A program made the position numbers and the translations under genes. Positions 3 to 32,086 of a DNA stretch of 54,971 nucleotides are shown piece by piece. Source of the stretch: an uncultured Lentisphaerales bacterium (GTDB lineage Bacteria; Verrucomicrobiota; Kiritimatiellia; RFP12; JAAYLN01); NCBI GenBank assembly GCA_964592855.1, contig CAZQKI010000003.1, positions 1,273 to 56,243 of the forward strand. The letters run 5' to 3'. Under the pieces are notes generated by a model. That model did no database searches. It had not been told where the DNA came from and worked only from the letters and a program-made list of their open reading frames with translations. Numbering within the stretch: the stretch's first letter is position 1; every line of letters begins with the position of its first letter.

Positions 3-2993
3 GTCATCACGCACGCCCAGGAAACCGCGCTGAAGGCCTTTCCGGTTGAGCCCAACGCCTTCTACCGGCTCTCCTTCGAGGCCGAAGGGGCCGCGGCGCC
101 GGCGGTTCGGTGGACCATCCATCAGGTCGACGGCGAGGGTGAACTGCCTTACGACGGCTGCCTCGAAGCCGACTGGCAGCATCTCCGTGCAGGGGAGTCC
201 CGTTATCACCACGACTTCCTGACAGTCGGCGATGCGGTCGAGCTGCGGTTCAGCCTGATCCCCGCGGCACGCGCGCCGGCGCTGAAGTCGGTCACCCTCG
301 AGCGGATCACCGTGACGAATCTCATGTTGAACGGCGACTTTGCGCTGGGTGCAGGCAACCAGTCGGGCTGGAACGAGATGCACGGGGCGACGGTGATCGG
401 GGAGGGAGGCACCAACCTGCTGCAGGTCAACCCGAACGGCTATGCGCTGAGCGACTGCTTCCCCGTTGCCGATCAGGGCGGCTACACCTTCGTCAAGGGC
501 GCCAAGACGTGGCCGGGCGTCGCCGTGCTGGCCTATGACCGCAACCGGCGGCTGATCGACCGCGTACCCTACGCATTCAGAAACCGTCCGCCTTTGCGGA
601 TGCCGGCCGGCGCCGCATACGCCCGTCTGCTGTTCACAACCAGCCACGATCACATTCCCTCCTTCTGCACCAACCGCATCGTTTTCACGGGTCTGTTTCC
701 GTCCGGAACCAATCCGCCCCCCGCGCATGCGCCCGCCGTGCGGTTGCGGGCGGATTCGGAGATTGTCGTGAGCCCGCACGCCGATCCGCGCGAAGTCCAT
801 GCGGCGCGCGAACTGCGGCACTGGATCGGGGCGATCTCCGGCAGGACGCCGACGCTGCTGGCACGCCCGTCGGTCAAACGCAACGTTAAACTGCATGTGG
901 GCATCTCCCTCGCAGGTGCTTTCCGCGAGGATCTGGCGTGGCTGAAAGGATCCGACGGCTATGCCGTCAGAAGCCGTGACGGCGGAATCTACATTTTCGC
1001 GGCCAAGCCCCGTGGCACGCTCTTCGGCGTCTACGCGCTGCTCGAGCGCAACTCGGACATCCTCTGGCCCCGTCCGAATCCCGCTTTCGAAGCGATCTTC
1101 ACTCCCGATCCCGGCCTTGCGTTCAAGGCGGCCGACTTCCGGTCGCGCCCGGTATTCGCCCTGCGCCACATCAGCACGGGCGGCTATGACGGCGAGCGGA
1201 ATGCGTTCCGCTTCCAGGACTGGATGGCGCGCAACGGGTTGAACACCGACACGCGGATGCACCGGGGGCTCGACTACCTCGTCTGGCAGCGCGGCGCACC
1301 GGCCGTCTACGGCACCAGCCACATCGGCTGGCTCGGCGCGGCTCCCGACCGCGATAACACCCTCTATCCGCTGATCGACGGTGCGCACAGCATCAGCCGC
1401 TGGCGCCAGCCCTGCTACACGCACCCCGACACGGTCCCGACCATCGTCGCCGCGATCCGGGCCAAGCTCGCACTGCTACCGGACCAGCCGGTCGAACAGG
1501 TCCACTCGATCATCGCCGACAACTGGAGCGTCTGCGCCTGCGCGCGCTGCATGCAGCCGATCCGTCTGCCCGACGGCAGCCTGCTGAAACCGCAGTCGCC
1601 TTACGCCAACAAGGACTCGCTCTTCTTTTCGACGCGCAATTTCATCATGCTCAACGCCGTCGCGGAGGCGCTGGCCAAGGACTTTCCCAACCTGCGCATC
1701 CTCACCCACGCCTACATCTTCACGGCAGAGCCGCCCAAAGTGCCGGTTCACCCGAACATCATTCCGCAGTTTGCCGCCTATCCGACGCAGAACGCGCGCT
1801 ATCCGATCCTGGCCGGCAAAGGGATGCCGCTCAGCGAATATTCGGCCGACGTCTGGAAACGCCGCTTCGCGGGGTGGGGAACTTGGAAACCGGATGGCCT
1901 GGGTTTCTTCGGCTACTACTACATGCCGGGCTTCAATGCGCTGGCCGAAACGGCGGCGGACGATTTCAGGGACCTGGCGCGATTCGGCGGGGTCTATGTC
2001 CACACCGAAGGCTTTCCGGTCGACGACGAAGCGCTTTCGACCTGGGATGTCGACGGCCCCGAGAAGTGGATCATGGCCCGGCTGATGTGGGACCCCGCCC
2101 AGTCCGCTGCCGACTTGCGTGACACCTATATTCAAAAGGTGTACCGCGAGGCCGCGCCGCAAATGCGAGCTTTTCACGCGCTCATCGGGAAGGCCTGGCA
2201 TGACGAGGCGAACGATCTTTTTGTGAATTGTCACTCCCAGGTCCGGGATCTTTACGAAGGCCTGCTGGTAAAGCCGGGAATCGAGCAGGAGGCGCGTGCG
2301 CGGCTGGTCGAGGCCGCTGCCGCGGCACAGCATCCCCAGGCGAAGGCGATGATCCAACGGACCCTGGCGCATTTTGATCAGTTCAGGGATAGCCTGGGTA
2401 GGCATGTGGTGCCGCTCGTGGAGGAGTCGCGTCAGGCATGGAGCGACGCCGTCTCGCCCCACTGGGAGAAGGCGCTGGTGCTCGGGCCGTTCAAGCAGGT
2501 GGACGACTGGCGGCGGTTTGAGGGTGCACTCGCCGTGCATCAGACCGAGGTGCGCATCATGCACGACGGCGAACAACTGTACATCCGGGTCGTGGCCCAT
2601 GACGATAGGCCCGGCGAAGTGGTGGCCCCGCCGAAAGCTGAGACCGAGCGCTTTCCGAACGGCGACCGCTTCGAACTGATCGGTGTCGGCGGAAAACCCG
2701 GGCGCCGGTATTTCGCGGCCGGTCCGAACGGCAACCGCTACGCCGATCCGAAGACCGATACCCCCTGGCGGGTTCAAACGACTGTGCGGCCCGATGCCTG
2801 GATAGACATGATCGCCATTCCACTTGCGGAGTTCGGTCTGAACCCGGCGGATCCAACCTTCAAAGCCAGGGTGGGGCGGGTCTACCGGCTTGCAGGCGAG
2901 GTGCGCGAAGAGAGCACGCCGAGCGGGACCAGCCTCTACAACGAGCACGAATCGTTTTGGATGACCCTGAATCTGGAAAGGAAGGAGCGCTGA
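3..2993 (+). CDS. DUF4838-family putative carbohydrate-active protein (5' partial) with N-terminal CBM-like domains and a C-terminal sugar-binding domain
   Basis: The frame is open from position 3 (VITHAQETALKAFPVEPN...) into the 312..2993 ORF, so the gene starts off the left edge. It has a GH20/GH67 N-domain-like segment (AARELRHWI...DGYAVR...GTLFGVYALLE), the DUF4838-type DNxxxCxCxxC motif, and MARLMWDP. Confidence 0.75.
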   Translation, partial: VITHAQETALKAFPVEPNAFYRLSFEAEGAAAPAVRWTIHQVDGEGELPYDGCLEADWQHLRAGESRYHHDFLTVGDAVELRFSLIPAARAPALKSVTLERITVTNLMLNGDFALGAGNQSGWNEMHGATVIGEGGTNLLQVNPNGYALSDCFPVADQGGYTFVKGAKTWPGVAVLAYDRNRRLIDRVPYAFRNRPPLRMPAGAAYARLLFTTSHDHIPSFCTNRIVFTGLFPSGTNPPPAHAPAVRLRADSEIVVSPHADPREVHAARELRHWIGAISGRTPTLLARPSVKRNVKLHVGISLAGAFREDLAWLKGSDGYAVRSRDGGIYIFAAKPRGTLFGVYALLERNSDILWPRPNPAFEAIFTPDPGLAFKAADFRSRPVFALRHISTGGYDGERNAFRFQDWMARNGLNTDTRMHRGLDYLVWQRGAPAVYGTSHIGWLGAAPDRDNTLYPLIDGAHSISRWRQPCYTHPDTVPTIVAAIRAKLALLPDQPVEQVHSIIADNWSVCACARCMQPIRLPDGSLLKPQSPYANKDSLFFSTRNFIMLNAVAEALAKDFPNLRILTHAYIFTAEPPKVPVHPNIIPQFAAYPTQNARYPILAGKGMPLSEYSADVWKRRFAGWGTWKPDGLGFFGYYYMPGFNALAETAADDFRDLARFGGVYVHTEGFPVDDEALSTWDVDGPEKWIMARLMWDPAQSAADLRDTYIQKVYREAAPQMRAFHALIGKAWHDEANDLFVNCHSQVRDLYEGLLVKPGIEQEARARLVEAAAAAQHPQAKAMIQRTLAHFDQFRDSLGRHVVPLVEESRQAWSDAVSPHWEKALVLGPFKQVDDWRRFEGALAVHQTEVRIMHDGEQLYIRVVAHDDRPGEVVAPPKAETERFPNGDRFELIGVGGKPGRRYFAAGPNGNRYADPKTDTPWRVQTTVRPDAWIDMIAIPLAEFGLNPADPTFKARVGRVYRLAGEVREESTPSGTSLYNEHESFWMTLNLERKER

Positions 2994-2994
2994 C

Positions 2995-3906
2995 ATGCGT
3001 GCGATCCTGCTTGCCCTCTGCGCCCTGTTCGGCGTGGCGCGCGTCGGCCTCGGTGCGGAGCCTCCTGCCGTCCGCGACTTCACGGCGGCCTCGGCCGGAC
3101 AACAGCTGCGCGACGCGCCCAAGGGCGTTGCTGTTGCCGAGTCGGCCGGCGGTGGACGGTGCCTCGCCGTCGCGGGGTCGGTCGGCCAGTACGACCTGAT
3201 CGCGGTCGCGGTCCAACCGGAGACCAAGTACCGGATCAACCTGCGCGCCCGCATCGACGGCGAGCGGACCATCGAGCAGAACGACCGTGCGCATATCGAT
3301 GCGGTGCAGCGGAACGGGCGTTGGGAAGCCAGCTATCAGGTCGTGTTTTTCGACGATTCCACTAATGCAGAGGGGTGGGTGCAGAACGGCGGCTTCATTC
3401 TCACGGCCGCGTGGCACGATTACGTGCATGTCTTCCACACGCCGCCGAACGTGCGGCGCGTCTGCATTCGCCTGCTGCCGCGCAAGCACGGCACCTACGT
3501 CGAACGCGTCTCGCTGGTGCCAGACGACGAAGGGGGCACGGTCAACGCCAATCCCGACTTCCGTTACGGCGAGTTGAACTACTGCGGCTGGCGTCCGCAG
3601 CGGGATGGGCGCATCTACCGGCGGCCCGACGGCTCCTGCGTGTTCCGTTCCGGCTACGGCGGAGCGTCGCCGCTATTTCCCCTGCGTGCCGGCCTGCCGT
3701 ATCGCCTGGCGGCAACGGGTGATGGCGGCCACATGAACCTGGACTACTCCGATGCGCAAGGGAAGATCATCACCAGCCGTTTTCTGCTCCGGCCGACGCC
3801 GGAAGGGGTTTCTGTTGAGCTAACCCCGCCGGACGGGACGGTGTCGGGCCGCGTCGTTCTTTACGGCGTTCTGCTGGATGCGTTCACCGTGATTCCGGGC
3901 AAATGA
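2995..3906 (+). CDS. Secreted hypothetical protein with two carbohydrate-binding-like beta-sandwich modules
   Basis: 303-aa ORF with a signal peptide (MRAILLALCALFG...), 1 bp after the upstream stop. NPDFxxGxxNxxGW motif is shared with the upstream protein. Confidence 0.7.
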   Translation: MRAILLALCALFGVARVGLGAEPPAVRDFTAASAGQQLRDAPKGVAVAESAGGGRCLAVAGSVGQYDLIAVAVQPETKYRINLRARIDGERTIEQNDRAHIDAVQRNGRWEASYQVVFFDDSTNAEGWVQNGGFILTAAWHDYVHVFHTPPNVRRVCIRLLPRKHGTYVERVSLVPDDEGGTVNANPDFRYGELNYCGWRPQRDGRIYRRPDGSCVFRSGYGGASPLFPLRAGLPYRLAATGDGGHMNLDYSDAQGKIITSRFLLRPTPEGVSVELTPPDGTVSGRVVLYGVLLDAFTVIPGK

Positions 3907-3977
3907 GCGTTCCCAGGGAGGCAACATGACGCGAGTTTTTCTAACGTGAATTTAACCAAAAAATAACTGAAAAGGCC

Positions 3978-4006
3978 TTGCCGACATGGCGCATCTTTGG
4001 GAAAAT
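3978..4006 (+). promoter_or_regulatory. Putative sigma70 promoter
   Basis: TTGCCG-17 bp-GAAAAT with an extended -10 TG, preceded by an AT-rich UP-like tract (about 3936-3973). Confidence 0.4.
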
Positions 4007-4106
4007 GACGTCGTTCAACTGCCCGTGTGCCCGTGCATTGTTCGCTGAAGTGCCGTCGGCCGGCGGAGGATGACCACGGCGAAATGATGATCCATGAGGG
4101 GGACGT

Positions 4107-6920
4107 ATGCAAAACAGCAGTCAACTGGTCTTGGCTTCCATGCTCGTCTTGTTCAGCTTCTTCGGCCTTCCGGGGCAAATGCGCGGGGCGGGCGTTACGG
4201 TCGTCTCCGAAAATTTCAACGCGCTGGGCACCTCGGCGACGGCTGCTTTGCCCGGCGGCTGGAAGGTCGATGGCCAAACAACGACGGCTCGAAGCCCGGT
4301 CTCCCATGCCGCTGCGGGCACGGCCACGACCCAGCAAGCGACGGGTGGAAATCCCACAACATCCGGCATCTACAATTTCGGCAGCGATGCATCGGACCGC
4401 GCCGTCGGCTGGCTCGCTACCGGAACCGCCTTCAAGAACTGCAATCTCTATGTCTCATATGTCAATAGCGGCGCCGTTGCCATCGACCATTTCACAGTCT
4501 CCTTCACCGGGCGGAAGTTCAAGCACAATTCCAATGCCGCCGGCTTTTCGCTGCGCCTGTTCACCTCCACCGACGATGCGAACTGGACGGAGGTTGCCGC
4601 CGGGCGCTTGACCTGGACTGTCGACGAATCGACGCTGTCCCCGAAGGTTGTCGTCGACGCCCTCGTGCAGCAGACGTTGGAGCCGGGGCAGACTCTCTAT
4701 TTTGCCTGGAACTACTGCGTGACGACCGGCACCACCACCTCGTATGCGCAGGGTCTGGGTGTCGACAATGTCACGATCACGGCCTATCCCGTTGAGGCGG
4801 ATGCGCCGGCGGTTTACGTGTCGACCAACGCGTTGAGCGGCTTTTCCGCGATCATTGGTGCGCCCTCGACGGCTCAGTCCTTCAGCTTCACCGGCAGCAA
4901 CCTGACGGCCGAGGTGACGCTGACCGCGCCGGACGGCTTTGAGCTTTCGTGGGACGGCAGCACCTATGCCCCCAGTCTCACGAATGCCAACAGCGGCACC
5001 ATCGCCCCCCGCTCCGTCCAGGTGCGCCTGGCCGCGGCCGGTTCGGTCAACGACAACGTGGCCGGCAACCTGAGCCTGGCCGGTGGCGGACTGCTCTACC
5101 CCGTGAGCCTCGCGCTGACAGGAGCCGTGCTGCGCGACAGGTCCGGCGATACCTTTTGCGAGGATTTCGAAGCCGGAAGCAAAGCCACGTATGCCTCCAA
5201 TGACGTCACCTGCGCATCGGGTCGATGGAGCCTCGACAACATGCTTCTGGGCACGGGCGTCAACGACAAGAAGCACGACACCCAGGCGGTCCGCGGCTAC
5301 GGCACGGTGACTATGCTGTTCGACAAGACCAATGGCGTGGGCCAGATCAGCATCCATCATGGCATGTATGGCACGGACAGCGCAGCCGGCGTGGCGTGGA
5401 CGCTCTTGGTTTCGCAGAACGCCGGCAACACGTGGACGGCCTACGCATCCGCGCCGCAGGCGCCTGATTCGACGTTGCGGGAGGTTGTCTTTGAATCGGT
5501 CAACCTGCCGGGTTCCGTCCGCATCAAGGTTGTGGTATCCGGCGGATCATCCACCAAGCGCGTCAACTTCGACGATATCTGCATGACCGACTACATTGCG
5601 CCGGTGGTTTCGGCTCTGCCGGCGGTGCTGAATCCGTTTTCCGTGCGTCTGCAGGTGCCGGCCGTCCCCTCGGCGCCACGAACCTTCGTCGTCTCGGGGC
5701 TCAACCTGAGCAACGTGGTTGTCGTCGCGGCCCCAGCGGGATTTGCCGTCTCCCGTGAAAGCAACGCCGGCTATGCCGACTCGCTGACGCTGCCGCAGAT
5801 GAATGGCGTCGTCCAGAACACGACGATCCACGTCCGCCTGACGGGCGCCGCTTCGGGCAGTTTCGCGGGGAATGTCGTCGTATCGAGCTCCGGCGCCGCC
5901 CCGGTGAACGTGGCGGTCGCGGGCGAGGTGGTCGACAACCTGCGTCCGGTGCTGACGGGTCTGCCCATCGCGACGAACACGCTGGCGAACCATCGGATCG
6001 AGCTCGAGGTCCTGGCCTCCGATACCGATGGCTCGGTCGCGGATCTTGCCGTGTCGAGCGTGGACATCCCTGGCGCTTCCGCCGGACTCGACGTGCAGAT
6101 CGAGGGCGGCGCACGGCGCGGCGTCTGGTCGTGGACGCCGTCGCAGGCGGGAACCCACACCGTGACCTTCACCGCAACTGACAACGAGGGCGGCATCACC
6201 GCGTGTACCGTGACGATTGTCGTGGCGCCGGAGTGGATTCTCGCCGTCGCCCCCGGCAAGACCTTCCGCCAGTCTTTTGACGGCATCGGCACGAATGCGG
6301 CAGCCCCGCTCCCGGCGGGGTGGAAGGTGGAGAAGCAAGCTTCCGTCCGGACGGTCGGCTCCTTTGCGGCGGCGCTCCAGGCGACGGAGAAAATCGGCGG
6401 CAACGCGTTGGCTTCGAATGCCCCAAATGGTATCTACAACTTCGGCGCCGGCGACGAAGCCACGGCGTCGGACCGCGCCGTCGGTTTCCTCAGCAGCAGC
6501 AGCGACACCAAATCGGGATCCCTGATGGTTTGCCTGGTGAACCGTTCAAAAGATCCCATCCCCGGGTTCACACTCGCCTTTGATGTGGAGAAGTACCGGT
6601 CGGGCACGAACGTCAATGGGTTCGCCGTCCAGGTCTACGCCTCACCCGACGGCGAAACCTGGAGCGAAGCGGGGCCGGCGGCCCGCGTGTCCTTCCCGGC
6701 CGATGCCGTGACGGACGGCTACAATCCGGCGCCGGGGCCGGTGGCGACGGCAGCGGGCGGCGTGAGTCTGGGCAAACTCCGGCCCGGCGAGTCGCTCTAT
6801 CTGGCCTGGAACTATTCCGTTGCCGGAGGTACCTACACCGCCTATGCACAGGCGTTGGCGATCGACGACATCGTCATCAAGGCCGAAGCGTCTCCGCAAA
6901 CCGTGTTGATTGTGCGGTGA
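4107..6920 (+). CDS. Secreted modular beta-rich protein (duplicated terminal domain, Ig-like/cadherin-like domains) with short C-terminal motif PQTVLIVR
   Basis: 937-aa ORF with SD GAGGGG and a signal peptide. N- and C-terminal domains are homologous (LPxGWKV...GIYNFG...SDRAVG...LYxAWNY...YAQxLxxDxxxI). Two SNLxxxVxxxAPxGFxxS Ig-like repeats; SDTDG...WTP...TFTATD cadherin-like domain. Confidence 0.8.
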   Translation: MQNSSQLVLASMLVLFSFFGLPGQMRGAGVTVVSENFNALGTSATAALPGGWKVDGQTTTARSPVSHAAAGTATTQQATGGNPTTSGIYNFGSDASDRAVGWLATGTAFKNCNLYVSYVNSGAVAIDHFTVSFTGRKFKHNSNAAGFSLRLFTSTDDANWTEVAAGRLTWTVDESTLSPKVVVDALVQQTLEPGQTLYFAWNYCVTTGTTTSYAQGLGVDNVTITAYPVEADAPAVYVSTNALSGFSAIIGAPSTAQSFSFTGSNLTAEVTLTAPDGFELSWDGSTYAPSLTNANSGTIAPRSVQVRLAAAGSVNDNVAGNLSLAGGGLLYPVSLALTGAVLRDRSGDTFCEDFEAGSKATYASNDVTCASGRWSLDNMLLGTGVNDKKHDTQAVRGYGTVTMLFDKTNGVGQISIHHGMYGTDSAAGVAWTLLVSQNAGNTWTAYASAPQAPDSTLREVVFESVNLPGSVRIKVVVSGGSSTKRVNFDDICMTDYIAPVVSALPAVLNPFSVRLQVPAVPSAPRTFVVSGLNLSNVVVVAAPAGFAVSRESNAGYADSLTLPQMNGVVQNTTIHVRLTGAASGSFAGNVVVSSSGAAPVNVAVAGEVVDNLRPVLTGLPIATNTLANHRIELEVLASDTDGSVADLAVSSVDIPGASAGLDVQIEGGARRGVWSWTPSQAGTHTVTFTATDNEGGITACTVTIVVAPEWILAVAPGKTFRQSFDGIGTNAAAPLPAGWKVEKQASVRTVGSFAAALQATEKIGGNALASNAPNGIYNFGAGDEATASDRAVGFLSSSSDTKSGSLMVCLVNRSKDPIPGFTLAFDVEKYRSGTNVNGFAVQVYASPDGETWSEAGPAARVSFPADAVTDGYNPAPGPVATAAGGVSLGKLRPGESLYLAWNYSVAGGTYTAYAQALAIDDIVIKAEASPQTVLIVR

Positions 6921-17812: not shown

Positions 17813-18871
17813 ATGCGGTACAACATCTACTACCGAAAGTGCGATGGCGCCCCGGCCAATCTCTTCAAGGAGAAATACGCCGGGAGCGGCATCGAGGCAC
17901 AGGTGTCTGCCGCCTGCCGTGCTTTCGCCGGCACCGATGCCGAGACGATCACGCCGCTCAACAGCGATGGCGATCACTATGCCTACCGCGTTAAACTGGC
18001 CGGCGAGGAGATGATTTTTCGCGCCGATACCTCCACCGATAACGATGACTACATGCTTGCGGAGGCGGCGGCGATGCGGCTGGCGCGCGGCGCCGGCGTC
18101 CCCGTGCCCACAGTCTTTACCACCGACGTTTCCCGGGTGTGTGTCCCGTGCCGCTGGCAGCTTCTCGAATGGGTTCCCGGCAAGGCGCTGGTGGACTATG
18201 ATCGCGACAAGACGCTGAACCGTGTCGCGATTGCCCGCCAGATCGGGACGCTATTCCGCCGGCTCCACTCCGTGCCGCTGGAAGGATTCGGCTTCTTCAA
18301 CACAAAGCTGCTTTCGGAAACGGGCCGCGTGCGCGGCCTTTACGCGAGCTACCGGGAATACTTCTGCTGCCGTCTGGACGACCATTGCCGCTATTTACTC
18401 GAACACGCCCTGGCCGATTGCGGCACGCTGAAGCGCGTCGCGGCCGTTTTCGAGGGGGCGCAGGCGCTCCTCGACCTGAAGGCGGGGGTTCTGGTTCACC
18501 GTGATCCTGCCTTCTGGAACCTGGTGGGTGAATCGGATCGCATTTCCGCCTTGATCGACTGGGATGATGTCGTTTCCGGCGATGCCGCGGACGACCTCGG
18601 GTTGATGTGGTGCTTTCACGATGCCCGCTTCATGCGGGACGTGCTGGCCGCCTATGGGAACGAAGAACCGGGCTTCGAGAGGCGAATATCCCTCCACTAT
18701 CTGCGGAACATGCTTTGGAAGACCGTCATCCGCCATCGGATGGGTTACTTCGAAAAAGGGCGGGATTTCTTTCTGAATGTGGCGCAAGGCAACGCCGTCA
18801 CATTGAAGGACGTAACCCTGAACAAGCTCAGCGAAGCATTGGAAAGGTGCGAATCGTCATGCAGTACTTGA
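17813..18871 (+). CDS. Aminoglycoside phosphotransferase/choline kinase-like protein
   Basis: EAAAM..AR..GVPVP, LLEWVPG, LRRLH-type segment (FRRLHS), Brenner-like VHRDPAFWN and LIDWDD. Confidence 0.8.
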   Translation: MRYNIYYRKCDGAPANLFKEKYAGSGIEAQVSAACRAFAGTDAETITPLNSDGDHYAYRVKLAGEEMIFRADTSTDNDDYMLAEAAAMRLARGAGVPVPTVFTTDVSRVCVPCRWQLLEWVPGKALVDYDRDKTLNRVAIARQIGTLFRRLHSVPLEGFGFFNTKLLSETGRVRGLYASYREYFCCRLDDHCRYLLEHALADCGTLKRVAAVFEGAQALLDLKAGVLVHRDPAFWNLVGESDRISALIDWDDVVSGDAADDLGLMWCFHDARFMRDVLAAYGNEEPGFERRISLHYLRNMLWKTVIRHRMGYFEKGRDFFLNVAQGNAVTLKDVTLNKLSEALERCESSCST

Positions 18872-19617
18872 AAATGGATCGGGATTTTTTGGCGGGACTC
18901 TGGCTGTCATCCGGCTCCGTTACCGCCGCCGAAATCGCCGGGGCTGCCGGTTTCGACTGGCTCCTGATCGACGGGGAGCACGGACTCGCGAGCGAGTCGG
19001 GCATCCTCGAAATTCTGCGGGCGCTGGCCGCCTCGACCGCATGCCCGGTCGTTCGGATACCGAGCCACGATTCGCCGCTGCTTGGGCGCGTCCTCGATTT
19101 CGGGGCGGGCGGCATCATGGCGCCGGGCGTTGAATCGGCCGACGAGGCCAGGCAGCTTGTGCAACGGATGCGCTATCCGCCCCGGGGAAAACGCGGGCTG
19201 ACGGCCTCCAGCCGTGCCGCGGGACATGGAAGTCAGTTCAAGACCTACTTTTCAGAGGCGAATGAGAAACTGGCCCTGATCGCCCAGATCGAAACCGCCG
19301 ACGGTGTGGCCCATGCCGATGAGATCGCCGCGGTTGACGGTGTTTCCGCCCTCTTCGTGGGACATTCCGATCTGAGTCTGAATCTCGGCGTTTTCGGCGA
19401 TTGGGAGCATGATGCCCTGAAGGCGGCCGAATCCCGGGTGATTGCGGCTTGCAGAAAATCGGGAAAGCTTCCGGGCATGCTGCTGAAAAGCGGTCAGAGC
19501 CCCGCTCCGTACCGCGAAAAGGGATTCCGGCTGATCGCGCTCGGAACCGATAGCGGGCTCCTCAGAAGCGGTTGCGCGAGCCTGCTCGCCGGCTGGCGCC
19601 AGGCGCCGGCAACTTAG
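18859..19617 (+). CDS. HpcH/HpaI-family class II pyruvate aldolase
   Basis: GFDWLLIDGEHG, PVVRIP, RYPPRGKRG, QIET, LFVGHSDL. Overlaps the kinase gene by 13 bp. Confidence 0.9.
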   Translation: MQYLKMDRDFLAGLWLSSGSVTAAEIAGAAGFDWLLIDGEHGLASESGILEILRALAASTACPVVRIPSHDSPLLGRVLDFGAGGIMAPGVESADEARQLVQRMRYPPRGKRGLTASSRAAGHGSQFKTYFSEANEKLALIAQIETADGVAHADEIAAVDGVSALFVGHSDLSLNLGVFGDWEHDALKAAESRVIAACRKSGKLPGMLLKSGQSPAPYREKGFRLIALGTDSGLLRSGCASLLAGWRQAPAT

Positions 19618-19628
19618 GGAGTTGCCGC

Positions 19629-19705
19629 TTCGTCCTCGTCGTCGAAAACCCTCGGTGGTTTCGAGTACGATTACGAGGACCGCTTCGCTGAGGACGAGGA
19701 CGAAA
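19629..19705. repeat. Inverted hexamer-array element (CGAGGA/CGAGTA-type units)
   Basis: TTCGTCCTCGTCGTCGAAA...TTTCGAGTACGATTACGAGGAC...GAGGACGAGGACGAA; the arms are complementary. Confidence 0.65.
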
Positions 19706-19826
19706 CTCAACTGGGCGCTTCAGGGTGATTTCTTCTTTGTCGCGAGCTTTGTCGACTGCATCGTCGCCATTGCATCTCCCAGCAAACAAGATGCTGTGGA
19801 CCCGGCGGTCCTCCGCCGTAGCGAAT

Positions 19827-20060
19827 AGGAGGCCGGAGCGACCGCTCCACTCGCCACCGCCGGGGACGGCGGGGTCCAGTTCGTCCCCTGTCGCGCCCGT
19901 TTGATTGGACGTACAGGACTCGCGCTTGCTCGTCAACCGTTCTCGTCGCCCGCTCTCGTTGACCGATTCTTCCGCCTTCCGCTTTTCGATGGACGATAGC
20001 GGACGACGCGAGCGGATCACGATTTCGTCCCGTCGTTCCCTTTTCTCTCTTCTCGCCAAC
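19827..20060. repeat. Direct repeat copy 1 (about 234 bp) flanking the TA cassette
   Basis: Aligns with 20979-21059 plus 21271-21423. Contains the CCGCCGGGGACGGCGG palindrome and an internal inverted array. Ends in CGCCAAC. Confidence 0.85.
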
Positions 20061-20123
20061 GGTCACGGCGAGCGTTTGACCGACCGTCGCGGGCGGGCAA
20101 TACGCTCCGCCGTGTTGTTCGGC
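20054..20123 (-). mobile_element. Integron attC site (downstream of brnA)
   Basis: Minus strand reads GCCGAAC...GTTGGCG, 70 bp. Hairpin CACGGCG/CGCCGTG, AGCGT/ACGCT, TTG/CAA with two extrahelical bases on the R''-L'' arm. Confidence 0.8.
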
Positions 20124-20413
20124 AATGCTTCCGCCCCTGACGTTCCGCGCTCTGCTTTGATGCCCCACGCAAGATAGAGTTTGGCAAGACTCTGGTAGGG
20201 CACATCACGTTTGTTCGCGAGGACTTTCAGATCGTCCAGCATACCCGCCGGCAGGCGGATTGAGATGGATCGCAGGGTCGGTCGCAGGTTAGGAAACGAC
20301 ACCCGTTTAGCGGCCTTGACATTGAAGTAGTCCAGCGGGGAGTGGTTAGCCCAGAACTCCCTCTCTTCGTCTTCTGTCTGGAACACTGGTCTAGTCTTCG
20401 TTTGCGTGCTCAT
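20063..20413 (-). CDS. brnA: BrnA/CopG-family antitoxin
   Basis: FQTEDEEREFW and SISIRLP...LK.LA.KRDVPYQSL ribbon-helix-helix. Overlaps the toxin gene; the stop codon lies inside the attC. Confidence 0.85.
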   Translation of the reverse strand: MSTQTKTRPVFQTEDEEREFWANHSPLDYFNVKAAKRVSFPNLRPTLRSISIRLPAGMLDDLKVLANKRDVPYQSLAKLYLAWGIKAERGTSGAEALPNNTAERIARPRRSVKRSP

Positions 20414-20699
20414 AGAATTCGCGCTCCCTTCGGTTCATATCTCGTGCGGAAATGATTCGAATTAAACTGCCTCTCGGCGTATAGACGACAACAAGCCTCC
20501 GCCCCAAGTCGGTCTGTCCGAAGGCAGCAAACCTATCCTCGGCTGCAGAATGCTTCGGATCATCCAGGATCACGAGCGGTTCATTGAAGAAGACCTGTTC
20601 GCACTCAGAAGCATGAACCCCATGCTTCAGGTTCTTCTCCTTGTTGCCGGCATCCCAGTCAAATCCGCTGGCATCCAAGTATTCGCCTGTCATGGACAT
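20391..20699 (-). CDS. brnT: BrnT-family ribonuclease toxin
   Basis: GFDWDAGNKEKNLKHGV...EQVFFN...HSAAEDRF..FG...LVVVYT.R...IRIISARDM. Start may be 20693. Confidence 0.92.
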   Translation of the reverse strand: MSMTGEYLDASGFDWDAGNKEKNLKHGVHASECEQVFFNEPLVILDDPKHSAAEDRFAAFGQTDLGRRLVVVYTPRGSLIRIISARDMNRREREFYEHANED

Positions 20700-20728
20700 A
20701 CAGTATACTTATGAGATATACGAGTCAA
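20700..20728 (-). promoter_or_regulatory. Cassette-borne brnTA promoter with overlapping palindromic operator
   Basis: Minus strand TTGACT-cgtatatctcataag-TATACTGT directly before the ATG; GTATA-N9-TATAC inverted repeat. Confidence 0.6.
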
Positions 20729-20755
20729 CCTCCATCTTCTGACTTCTTTCTGGGT

Positions 20756-20818
20756 GCCGAACGTTGCGCCTAACGGACGGCGAGCTTGCGAGCCGTACCT
20801 TTCAGGCGCTGGTTGTGT
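20756..20818 (-). mobile_element. Integron attC site (upstream of brnT)
   Basis: Minus strand reads ACACAAC...GTTCGGC, 63 bp. Hairpin GCGCCT/AGGCGC and ACGGC/GCCGT with extrahelical bases. Confidence 0.8.
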
Positions 20819-20870
20819 GCCGGGTATGCCCGGTCGCTTGTCGTCACGCTCCGCGAGACGATTGCAAAGA

Positions 20871-20973
20871 AACGGGATTGACTTCGAAATTCTGCGGTTC
20901 AGTATTCGTCGGGTTATGCGCCCGCGCAGCGGGAAATCTGCGGTTCGATTAGGTTGCGGGCGGAGCCCGCATT
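20871..20973 (-). repeat. REP-like palindrome plus left arm of the AACCGCAG element
   Basis: Reverse complement matches 31886-31964, apart from a roughly 24-bp insertion. Confidence 0.8.
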
Positions 20974-20978
20974 CGAGC

Positions 20979-21423
20979 AGGACGCCGGAGCGACCTTTCC
21001 ATTCGCCACCGCCGGGGACGGCGGGGGCCAGTTCGTCCCATGTCGCGCCCGTCTGATTGCAGTCTTGCCCTCCAGTGGCTGTTGATTGTCCCACTGTCCG
21101 CCGTAGTCGTCGACCCTGGGAGAGGAAGAATCGGCGGACGACTACGGCGACGACTACGGCTTACGATTTCCTTCGGTCGTTCCGCTTGTCAATCCTACTC
21201 GCACGCTCCTGTCCGCCAATCCCGGCGGAGCCGTGAACCGCCATGGGCTCGCACCGCGAGGATCGGAAGGGACGCACAGGACTCGCGCTCGCACGTCAAC
21301 CGTTCTCGTCGCCCGCTCTCGTTGACCGAGACTTCCGCCTTCCGCTTTTCGGTGGACGATAGCGGACGACGAGAGCGGATCACGATTTTGCCCCATCGTT
21401 CCATCTTCTCTCTTCTCGCCAAC
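20979..21423. repeat. Direct repeat copy 2 with an approximately 211-bp internal insert
   Basis: Matches 19827-20060. The insert at 21060-21270 holds ACGACTACGG repeats. It abuts an arm of the AACCGCAG element (21422-21462, matching 31997-32028). Confidence 0.85.
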
Positions 21424-21514
21424 TTCGACATTCGGACCTCATGATTCGAAAATCTGCGGTTCTTCTGCCGAGTTCCCGTGGCGTCTCGCACATGATCCAA
21501 AACCCGACAGGCTG

Positions 21515-22450
21515 CTACACGCTGGGGAAGAGGCGGCGCGCCTGGACGATGTCCTGCTGAACCTGGACCATGAGGGCTTGCGCATCGGGAAACTTGATTT
21601 CGTCGCGGAGGCGGGCCAGGAAGGCGACGTCCAGGGTCGCGCCGTAGAGGTCGCCCTCGAAGTCGAGCAGGTGGATCTCGAGCACGGGCGCATCGGGGCG
21701 CGCGTCGGCAAAGGTCGGGCGCCAGCCGAGCCCCGCGACGCCATCCACCGGGCGGTCGCCGATCCACGTCCGGACGGCATAGACGCCGATTTTCGGCAGC
21801 ACTTCCGCCGCCGGATGCAGGTTAGCCGTGGCCATGCCGATGGTGCGGCCGACCCCGCGGCCGCGGACGACCGTCTCGCGGATGGCATAGGGACGTCCGA
21901 GCATCTGCGTGGCCTCCTCGATGTCGCCCGCCTGGATGGCTTTGCGGATGCGGGTGCTGGAGATGGGCTTGCCCTTGTATTGCTCGGCGGTGGCGATGAC
22001 CACGTCGAAACCGTATTGCCGCCCCAGTACCGTGAGCAGCCCCGGGTTACCTTGTCCCTTGGCGCCAAACGTCCAGTTGTCGCCACAGCGGATCTCGACG
22101 ATCGCCTTTCGGTCGCCGCAGAGCAGGGCGATGAAGTCGGCCGGCGAAAGACCGGCGAGTTCATGCGTGAAGGGGAGCATGAGACAGCCGTCGAGGCCTG
22201 TGCTCGCGAGGAGCTCGAGCCGGCCGGGGATCGGCGTCAGCAGCGGGGGCTGGCGGCCGGGGGCGAGAATGGCGCAGGGATGCTGGTCGAAGGTGAGCGC
22301 CCACGCCTGCCCGCCGATCTCGCGGGCACGAGCAACGGCACCCTCGAGGACGCGGCGATGTCCGAGGTGGACGCCATCGAAGAAACCGGTGGCGAGGACC
22401 AGGGGGCCGGGTATCTGACGGAATGATTCGGGAAGAACGAGCGTATGCAC
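21515..22450 (-). CDS. ribF: Bifunctional riboflavin kinase/FAD synthetase
   Basis: GFFDGVHLGH, ISSTRIR, LGRPY, GRTIG..TANL, GVYA, GWRPTF, LEIHLLDF, RDEIKF. Confidence 0.95.
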   Translation of the reverse strand: MHTLVLPESFRQIPGPLVLATGFFDGVHLGHRRVLEGAVARAREIGGQAWALTFDQHPCAILAPGRQPPLLTPIPGRLELLASTGLDGCLMLPFTHELAGLSPADFIALLCGDRKAIVEIRCGDNWTFGAKGQGNPGLLTVLGRQYGFDVVIATAEQYKGKPISSTRIRKAIQAGDIEEATQMLGRPYAIRETVVRGRGVGRTIGMATANLHPAAEVLPKIGVYAVRTWIGDRPVDGVAGLGWRPTFADARPDAPVLEIHLLDFEGDLYGATLDVAFLARLRDEIKFPDAQALMVQVQQDIVQARRLFPSV

Positions 22451-31817: not shown

Positions 31818-31913
31818 CCCTAGAAAGTGCTGTTGTCGGTGATCGGTGATCCTTAACCGCTAATTTATGGGAAATCGAGAGGACTAATGCGGGTGGATCC
31901 CGCAACCCAATAT

Positions 31914-32027
31914 AACCGCAGATTGACGAATCCTGAACCGCAGAATGTCGAAGTCAATCCCGTTCCTTCGCGGTTGTCTTTGTCTTTCCTTCATGATTCG
32001 GACCTCATGATTCGTCAATCTGCGGTT
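31914..32027. mobile_element. MITE-like AACCGCAG element, 114 bp, 19-bp perfect terminal inverted repeats, preceded by a REP-like palindrome (31886-31908)
   Basis: AACCGCAGATTGACGAATC...GATTCGTCAATCTGCGGTT; both arms recur near the integron cassette. Confidence 0.75.
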
Positions 32028-32086
32028 CATACCGGTTTCAGTTCTGTACAACTTGCTATTTTTCGATGTAGCCAAGCCGTAAGGCA

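Follow-up and report, generated by a model that had tools for sequence, protein, structure and literature searches.

The window analysed here is a 54,971-nt stretch of the 67-kb contig C3 (GenBank CAZQKI010000003.1) of an uncultured freshwater Lentisphaerales bacterium, whose genome is designated G000, and the interval under study carries a brnTA toxin-antitoxin (TA) pair that is predicted to be an integron gene cassette. All coordinates are positions in the whole window, and the brnTA interval is read on the minus strand, where its features lie unless stated otherwise. The first gene in this direction is the conserved ribF (21515..22450) on the upstream side, which encodes an FAD synthetase/riboflavin kinase (Pfam Flavokinase, E 2.3e-37; FAD_syn, E 4.8e-37). 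It is followed by a stretch without credible open reading frames (ORFs), brnT, brnA, a second ORF-less stretch and, on the downstream side, a convergent gene on the plus strand (18607..19617) encoding an HpcH/HpaI-type aldolase (PF03328, E 9.3e-45). The brnT gene (20391..20699) encodes a predicted RNase toxin with a BrnT_toxin domain (PF04365, E 9.8e-25, 87.1 bits against a cut-off of 34.5), and brnA (20063..20413) encodes a predicted CopG/ribbon-helix-helix antitoxin (CopG_antitoxin, PF12441, E 4.8e-24, 85.4 bits against a cut-off of 28). The toxin gene precedes the antitoxin gene and the two overlap by 23 nt. With both domains scoring above the curated thresholds and the two genes next to each other and overlapping, the pair is predicted to be a type II TA system of the BrnT/BrnA kind.

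The upstream ORF-less stretch runs from 21423 to the end of an attC site at 20762 (662 bp) and consists of repeat DNA nearly throughout. The mechanically called ORFs within it are 80, 134, 134 and 190 aa long, the longest of which enters from ribF, and none of the four ORFs scanned in the ORF-less stretches matches a Pfam family. In an Rfam search of 19000-22000 with E values up to 1, nothing emerged except spurious hairpin matches far below threshold (EAV_LTH at 25.9 bits, where 70 is required). An earlier note on this DNA had described ORF-less, repeat-built segments on both sides of the TA cassette that begin with the same GTTGGCG, and this description is borne out. The sequence GTTGGCGAGAAG opens both repeat copies, at 21423 and at 20060, and a repeat search identified two pairs of direct repeats flanking the BrnT/BrnA pair, D1 (19907-20060 and 21270-21423; 154 nt, 92% identity) and D2 (19822-19907 and 20974-21059; 86 nt, 90% identity). 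The likeness within these pairs is far above chance. In copy 2, the two shared blocks are separated by 210 additional bases (21060-21269).

The brnTA cassette and its attC sites

In integrons, the integrase mobilises cassettes through a folded attC strand that is cut between G and TT. The brnTA unit (20060..20761) is predicted to be an integron gene cassette of 702 bp that includes a promoter-like region and an attC of its own and runs from TTCGGCACCC to GTGACCG. The similarity of related cassettes to the window is lost exactly at its two G|TT points. The homologues were found by a BrnT search of genome collections followed by DNA comparison. Three of them, from metagenome-assembled genomes of Kiritimatiellia or "Verrucomicrobiota" (L050, 83% DNA identity; L051 and L052, 78%), match the window only from 20730/20766 to 20056-20058, and their flanks are unrelated. 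Five homologous cassettes begin with GTTCGGC or GTTCGAC after unrelated sequence. A contig end of genome G021, from the same order, is 98% identical to the cassette over the 58 nt available, starting from GTTCGGC. In genomes G008, G015, G017 and G024, brnTA DNA was not found. The 3' ends of four homologous cassettes read GTGACC or GTGAGC; the next three bases are GTT in three of them and GAT in L052, and the sequence after the GTGACC|GTT point is GTTGGCGAGAAG in the window, GTTGGGTTATAAG in L050 and GTTATCCTGACC in L051. Two metagenome contigs of 1803 and 4043 nt, from two other lake/freshwater runs, match just 20055/20058-20764 with 11-12 differences (~98% identity) and diverge from the window on both sides of the cassette. 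The unit is bounded by G|TT, with the GAT of L052 at the 3' junction as the exception. The loss of similarity among homologues at these points supports the proposal of the earlier note, in which the TA pair forms a genuine integron cassette flanked by an attC on either side.

The attC of the cassette (20060..20123) is composed of R'' GCCGAAC, AA, the stem CACGGCG(G)AGCG / CGCTCGCCGTG, ACC and the G of G|TT. The site upstream of the cassette (attC_up, 20762..20818) is composed of R'' ACACAAC, CA, the stem GCGCCT(G)AA / TTAGGCGC, AAC and the G of the G|TT crossover. In constrained DNA folds, both sites form hairpins of the arrangement AAC-2 nt-stem...stem-3 nt-GTT, and a G is bulged out in either one (brnTA attC, -19.1 kcal/mol over 62 nt; attC_up, -12.1 kcal/mol over 55 nt). 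Both are imperfect inverted repeats (R''-L''...L'-R') in which AAC is closed with GTT and some bases are extrahelical. The hairpin of the brnTA attC compared across four homologues has 20 conserved pairs, 3 of them compensatory. Its R'' GCCGAAC pairs with the cassette start, G plus TTCGGC, at 7/7 positions in the window, L051 and L052 and at 6/7 in L050, and the GTT at 20060 is its positional R'. The earlier caveat that R'' ACACAAC does not match TTGGCG was a misassignment, since ACACAAC is the R'' of attC_up; the TTGGCG past the crossover belongs to the neighbour, and the cassette's own R' is the G plus TTCGGC. The attC_up site is unique in the genome and has a conserved 5' extension to ~20835. 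Its homologues are found in other arrays, the 5' half directly before the L053 brnTA cassette and the central part inside an attC of the L050 array.

The last ~20 codons of brnA (ending in PNNTAERIARPRRSVKRSP; 20063-20123) are encoded by the attC hairpin. Only the three closest cassettes share this long BrnA C-terminus; more distant BrnA genes have other ends. The TA unit also contains an operator-like palindrome and a promoter-like region, in which TTGACT-15 nt-TATACT before brnT is conserved by eye in the compared cassettes. The brnT message is probably leaderless, starting near 20699. A contig from a metatranscriptome library spans 19940-20685 with 0 differences and covers brnT, brnA, the attC and 120 nt of module A, the repeat described below, and 20736-20856 has almost no RNA-library coverage where the DNA run is continuous. 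These contigs come from one study and may include DNA carry-over, and gaps in the RNA coverage do not count as evidence; the RNA-library contig is a weak hint of brnTA expression.

The brnTA cassette of G021 (L048; G021:C177) is preceded by a conserved leader of ~216 nt (L048 1435-1655), with a promoter-like TTGACC...TACCAT followed by ...TTGGACGCATATTG..AAT|GTT. This leader recurs before other genes at G021:C18:9245-9462 and G021:C52:7360-7527, resembles the leader beside the intI gene of G000, and is a possible attI-like site that has no integrase next to it.

A full intI gene is encoded on contig C299 of G000 (2913-4571, L031) as a 438-aa open frame with a 433-aa ORF from ATG. It scores 369.7 bits against TIGR02249 (cut-off 265), a cut-off exceeded in 0 of 14 control genomes. 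None of the 7 TIGR02249 matches lies on the window contig C3. A deleted copy of intI on C234 (3575-6734) is followed by cassettes that include a RelE/HigB-like toxin with a helix-turn-helix antitoxin, and the attC sites of this array have the same geometry as those of the window (attC1, -17.2 kcal/mol over 70 nt; attC2, -70.4 kcal/mol over 208 nt). The leader of the C299 gene extends ~350 nt upstream and ends at the contig end (...TATTTAAC|GTTG). A similar leader of ~100 nt (TTGACATCG...TGGACGCCTAT...) is present on C234 and on C43 (13100-14110), where no integrase lies beside it.

The two attC sites of the window (20818..20762 and 20123..20060) lie 0.7 kb apart in the same orientation. Because two attC sites are present, the contig has no integrase match and intI is found elsewhere in the genome, the locus is probably a two-attC cluster of attC sites lacking an integron integrase (CALIN), located in a strain-variable intergenic gap that also holds short selfish repeats. 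The definition of the CALIN reportedly goes back to Cury et al. in 2016.

Repeat modules of the ORF-less flanks

The ORF-less DNA on either side of the cassette is not one duplicated unit but a mosaic to which five or more dispersed repeat families contribute. The families present include module A, a hairpin block, module B, which resembles a REPIN (a hairpin-forming doublet of repetitive extragenic palindromes, REPs), and the arms of an E-type palindrome. Upstream of the cassette, an E-type palindromic repeat arm ("pre2", 21424..21462) abuts the start of module A copy 2 (21270..21423), which is followed by the extra hairpin-repeat block found in copy 2 only (21060..21269, with a strong hairpin at 21099-21149), by module B copy 2 (20974..21059), which is truncated after ~86 nt, and by further E-type modules (20856..20973) corresponding to the first 118 nt of "tail2". 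Downstream of the cassette, module A copy 1 (19907..20060), the first base of which is the G of the cassette crossover, is followed by module B copy 1 (19797..19907), which in an alignment with 8 further copies is a full REPIN-like palindrome (TGGACCC...GGGTCCA). From there to the 3' end of the aldolase gene lie additional short repeats and hairpin modules (19620..19796), among them the inverted repeat I4 (19629-19643 / 19690-19704).

BLAST hits in the genome, self included, number 130 for module B, 64 for the E-type tail2 (none beyond query position 118), 51 for module A, 41 for the hairpin block and 25 for pre2, and copy 1 taken as a whole (236 nt) has 60 matches. With every module at 25-130 hits, the flanks do belong to dispersed repeats, as the earlier note had supposed. 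The sole unique part of the upstream ORF-less stretch is 20762-20855, which comprises attC_up and ~37 nt. On contig C206, positions 1-36 of module A are fused directly to the end of a hairpin block of the 21060..21269 type, and so the modules reassort. An 18-mer family (D3) is common to the pre2 arm, 20883-20900 and 20929-20946. The E-type modules of tail2 recur at 86-92% identity in G008, a genome of the same family, and other genera and families within the order share some of the repeat modules at 86-100% identity; a 31-nt piece of 19620..19796 is 100% identical at three places in G021. An intact palindromic E-type element of ~140 nt lies at ~31900-32041 of the window (G000:C3:33172-33313), and its arms are the pieces found at 21424-21462 and 20856-20973. 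Tandem heptamer arrays, (GTTCTTG)n, (GCTCAAC)n and (AATCGTA/AATCTTA)n, adjoin other repeat modules at G000:C206:2955-3025, C9:46469-46587, C33:5855-5950 and C234:3535-3565, the last of which lies just after the intI remnant.

Module B is an imperfect palindrome of ~110 nt made of two inverted GC-rich hairpin units, and its copies are extragenic and on both strands. Its core CCGCCGTCCCCGGCGG has 243 matches with at most 2 mismatches, counting both strands, and tandem arrays occur with a spacing of ~112 nt, including a five-copy array at C2:2587-3103. In its high copy number, short extragenic palindromes, inverted doublets and arrays, module B has the features of REP/REPIN elements. The features of a REP-associated tyrosine transposase (RAYT) system were not found: of three matches to the Y1 transposase family (PF01797) in the genome, two are above the cut-off, the flanks of two Y1 genes (C203, C69) contain no segment repeated at least 5 times, and the 6 kb on either side of each of the three matches contains no copy of the module B core. 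An AAC...GTT hairpin around module B copy 1 (19709-19901, arm energy -9.2) was considered as a further attC and rejected, as it is at background level and absent from copy 2.

The position of the TA pair between direct repeats of 154 and 86 nt would suit a composite element that was moved by recombination between these repeats, with no integron cassette involved. However, other genomes and metagenome contigs carry the TA unit but lack these repeats, and the unit ends there at G|TT rather than at repeats. Furthermore, the 18-nt start of module A (at most 1 mismatch) is present in this genome only, among the 151 searched. Mobilisation as a composite element is contradicted by these cassette ends and is extremely improbable.

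Three young A-B copies are present in the genome: copy 1, copy 2 and a third on contigs C90/C42/C267, which lies beside a MoxR-like gene and has no attC. Their A modules are 92-94% identical in every pairing, copy 1 and copy 2 sharing 92% and each of them 94% with the C90 copy. As the three are nearly equidistant, they form a star pattern rather than one expected from recent local duplication. One reading offered in the earlier note, a duplicated non-coding cassette, is not supported as worded, given that the two copies are no closer to one another than to the third and that the segment has no R'' complementary to GTTGGCG (GCCAAC is absent from 19600-21520). Nested in the third module-A copy at GACGAG^AACGG is a perfect palindrome of ~20 nt (TTATGTTGCG.CGCAACATAA; G000:C42:56-90 and G000:C267:5391-5420), which looks like a self-nesting mini-element.

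The junction at the GTTGGCG end of module A

The sequence GTTGGCG is the natural 5' end of module A. Eleven of the 17 module-A copies examined reach this end, and 6 of these 11 share further similarity upstream, so that no boundary is seen there. The flanks upstream of the terminus at copy 2, C90, C37 and C206 are unrelated to each other and are not attC-like. At the right-hand end of the brnTA cassette, attC and module A have one base in common, the G that closes the former and opens the latter, and the junction G|TTGGCG is a repeat terminus without similarity to attI. The GTTGGCG end resembles the R' cores of local attC sites (GTTGGCC, GTTGGGC, GTTGGCA). A crossover at the GTT of the repeat fits these observations, because one G is shared by attC and module A and because GTTGGCG is like the local R' cores. 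Most likely, the integrase produced this junction by joining the right-hand end of the brnTA cassette to a module-A G|TT, in the manner of known attC x attG or attC x attC recombination. The module-A GTT would have served either as a genomic secondary (attG-type) site or as a site already present behind attC_up. The boundaries of the cassette, its occurrence in other contexts, the shape of the attC sites, the intI gene and the repeat families are shown, and the part played by the integrase at this junction and the order of events are inferred. A preprint (bioRxiv 10.1101/2022.09.11.507474) describes the insertion of cassettes at genomic GWT (attG) sites, with two-cassette CALINs as possible products.

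The suggestion that a dispersed repeat supplies a secondary GTT integration site agrees with this junction, where the 3' crossover of the cassette is the GTT that opens a repeat copy, and does not extend beyond it. The genome contains 24 sites of the form GTTGGCGA[AG]A[AG], and an attC-shaped hairpin lies upstream of the one at 20060 only. Together with the lack of an attC at the third young copy, this argues against the further idea that the repeat family seeds cassettes around the chromosome. In G021, GTTGGCGAGAGAAG is located directly after the stop codon of a nitroreductase-like gene (L048 1142-1155; G021:C177:10641), 513 nt upstream of the brnTA cassette. The 11-mer GTTGGCGAGAG, found 513 nt upstream of the G021 brnTA in a segment otherwise unrelated to module A, occurs 8 times in that genome against 5 for the reversed control, and may be a chance match or a shared boundary motif.

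The same arrangement could have arisen with no integrase acting at the repeat junction, if the A-B elements came independently, or by local homologous recombination or duplication, into a gap holding a remnant array. The shared GTT would then be coincidental, perhaps helped by a preference for insertion next to hairpins. The whole gap is a repeat mosaic, and such modules fill intergenic gaps across the genome; module A also begins with GTTGGCG at places without attC, and a relative with a 95% identical ribF already has the start of module A beside this gene. An insertion of this kind, in turn, would need to land exactly at GACC/GTT and replace the R' of the attC itself, and five module-A termini have neither a target duplication nor a common target sequence. 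An origin without the integrase is accordingly judged quite unlikely.

Several results weigh against an integrase-made junction at module A, or against the attC calls on which it draws. No left partner of the junction and no empty site was located: none was found in 30 relatives or in 7 regions downstream of ribF, and a metagenome scan with RibF gave 4 loci (best 77%), none with a cassette-free interval. Among the contigs listed, none joins across the cassette or the whole insert and no joint of a circular form appears, but contigs drop rare variants and these absences carry no weight in either direction; the joints listed have short sides of 20-40 nt with 90% likeness and fit other repeat copies. 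The R'' of attC_up, ACACAAC, matches GTTGGCG at 4/7 positions, all within GTTG. A canonical hairpin lies upstream of only 2 of the 5 homologous cassettes (L052, and L053 with wider spacers), and fold tests did not show the hairpin geometry upstream of the L050, L051 and G021 cassettes. The promoter-like TTGACT-15 nt-TATACT of brnT was not called in a promoter scan. Genome-wide scans built for this analysis found AAC...GTT no richer than control triplet pairs, with 598 against 503 by duplex energy, 532 against 405 and 218 by constrained fold at -0.25 kcal/nt, and 160 against 138, 53 and 146 by fixed geometry at -8. The geometry scan recovered both C234 attC sites and the brnTA attC and missed attC_up. 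Since these scans are at control level, they give no reliable attC map of the genome, and the attC calls rest on comparison and geometry and not on a calibrated model. The motif GACGTTGG was likewise not enriched (209 matches against 251 and 223 for variants). Finally, two of the three young A-B copies lie only 1.36 kb apart, which calls for an unspecified local cause.

This proximity would be accommodated if the segment 21422..20762 (module A, hairpin block, module B, E arms and attC_up) were itself a mobile cassette, generated by imprecise excision between attC_up and the GTT of another module-A copy. A circle of two cassettes, this one and brnTA, would then have been inserted into one pre-existing A-B element at its G|TT. 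Both junctions lie exactly at G|TTGGCGAGAAG, and such a circle would explain why both segments start with TTGGCGAGAAG. Copy 2 is flanked by ordinary repeat DNA, which would be expected of the original flank. Imprecise excision of genome-inserted cassettes at nearby non-cognate sites, carrying genomic DNA along, has been reported from experiments (10.1101/2022.09.11.507474). In contrast, the segment lacks an R'' complementary to GTTGGCG, copies 1 and 2 are not more alike than either is to the C90 copy, the genome holds no second copy of the unique part of the segment or of attC_up, and the other 23 GTTGGCGARAR sites have no attC-shaped hairpin upstream. The circle is considered unlikely. A broader and equally doubtful proposal is that the GTTGGCG end of a lineage-specific selfish repeat mimics R' and acts as a natural landing pad (attG) for cassettes, and that imprecise excision packages repeat DNA as an ORF-less "cassette", the 662-bp segment, such that integrons and REP-like repeats would spread each other.

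The gap itself lies at a variable position. The order sigma-orf-ribF is kept in genomes of the same genus, and the gene after ribF differs in each one examined (L037-L045); given that it varies in all, the 3' side of ribF is a synteny breakpoint (window 21515 on). For the aldolase, the sole DNA match among 30 relatives is one 28-nt match in G027.

Relation to known systems

The locus is of a known type, a CALIN with a TA cassette in a mosaic of REP-like repeats, and its curious part is the junction at the repeat terminus. A literature search for Kiritimatiellota together with integron found both words only in passing. As in other CALINs and in attG-inserted cassettes, the two attC sites have one orientation, intI lies elsewhere and each side has a G|TT crossover. 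Its right-hand partner is a plain GTT in DNA that is not attC, in agreement with the GWT rule reported for attG insertion (10.1101/2022.09.11.507474). It differs from these cases in that the partner GTT forms the end of a dispersed repeat, a second copy of which starts the upstream ORF-less segment, and in that the insertion event is deduced from the junction.

The brnTA unit appears similar to the TA cassettes of chromosomal integrons and to known BrnTA modules in being a small two-gene unit with the toxin before the antitoxin, carried as a single cassette. Unlike in the usual TA cassettes, the last ~20 codons of the antitoxin come from the attC, a feature common only to the three closest cassettes. 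Module B resembles REP, REPIN and bacterial interspersed mosaic elements (BIMEs) in its palindrome, its inverted hairpin pairs, its more than 100 copies and its arrays at ~112 nt, and differs from REP/RAYT systems in that the Y1 genes checked are not flanked by module B and in that its modules reassort with other families.

The insertion of cassettes outside integrons has been shown in the laboratory only recently, and natural junctions that are cleanly delimited are useful in this respect. Here, a TA cassette that has travelled widely is delimited to the base at its two crossover points. The junction at the repeat terminus hints, from one locus, that dispersed repeats may offer ready secondary sites for cassette insertion. 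If the landing-pad proposal were true, the locus would illustrate, in nature, both the use of attG sites and the genesis of cassettes from chromosomal DNA.

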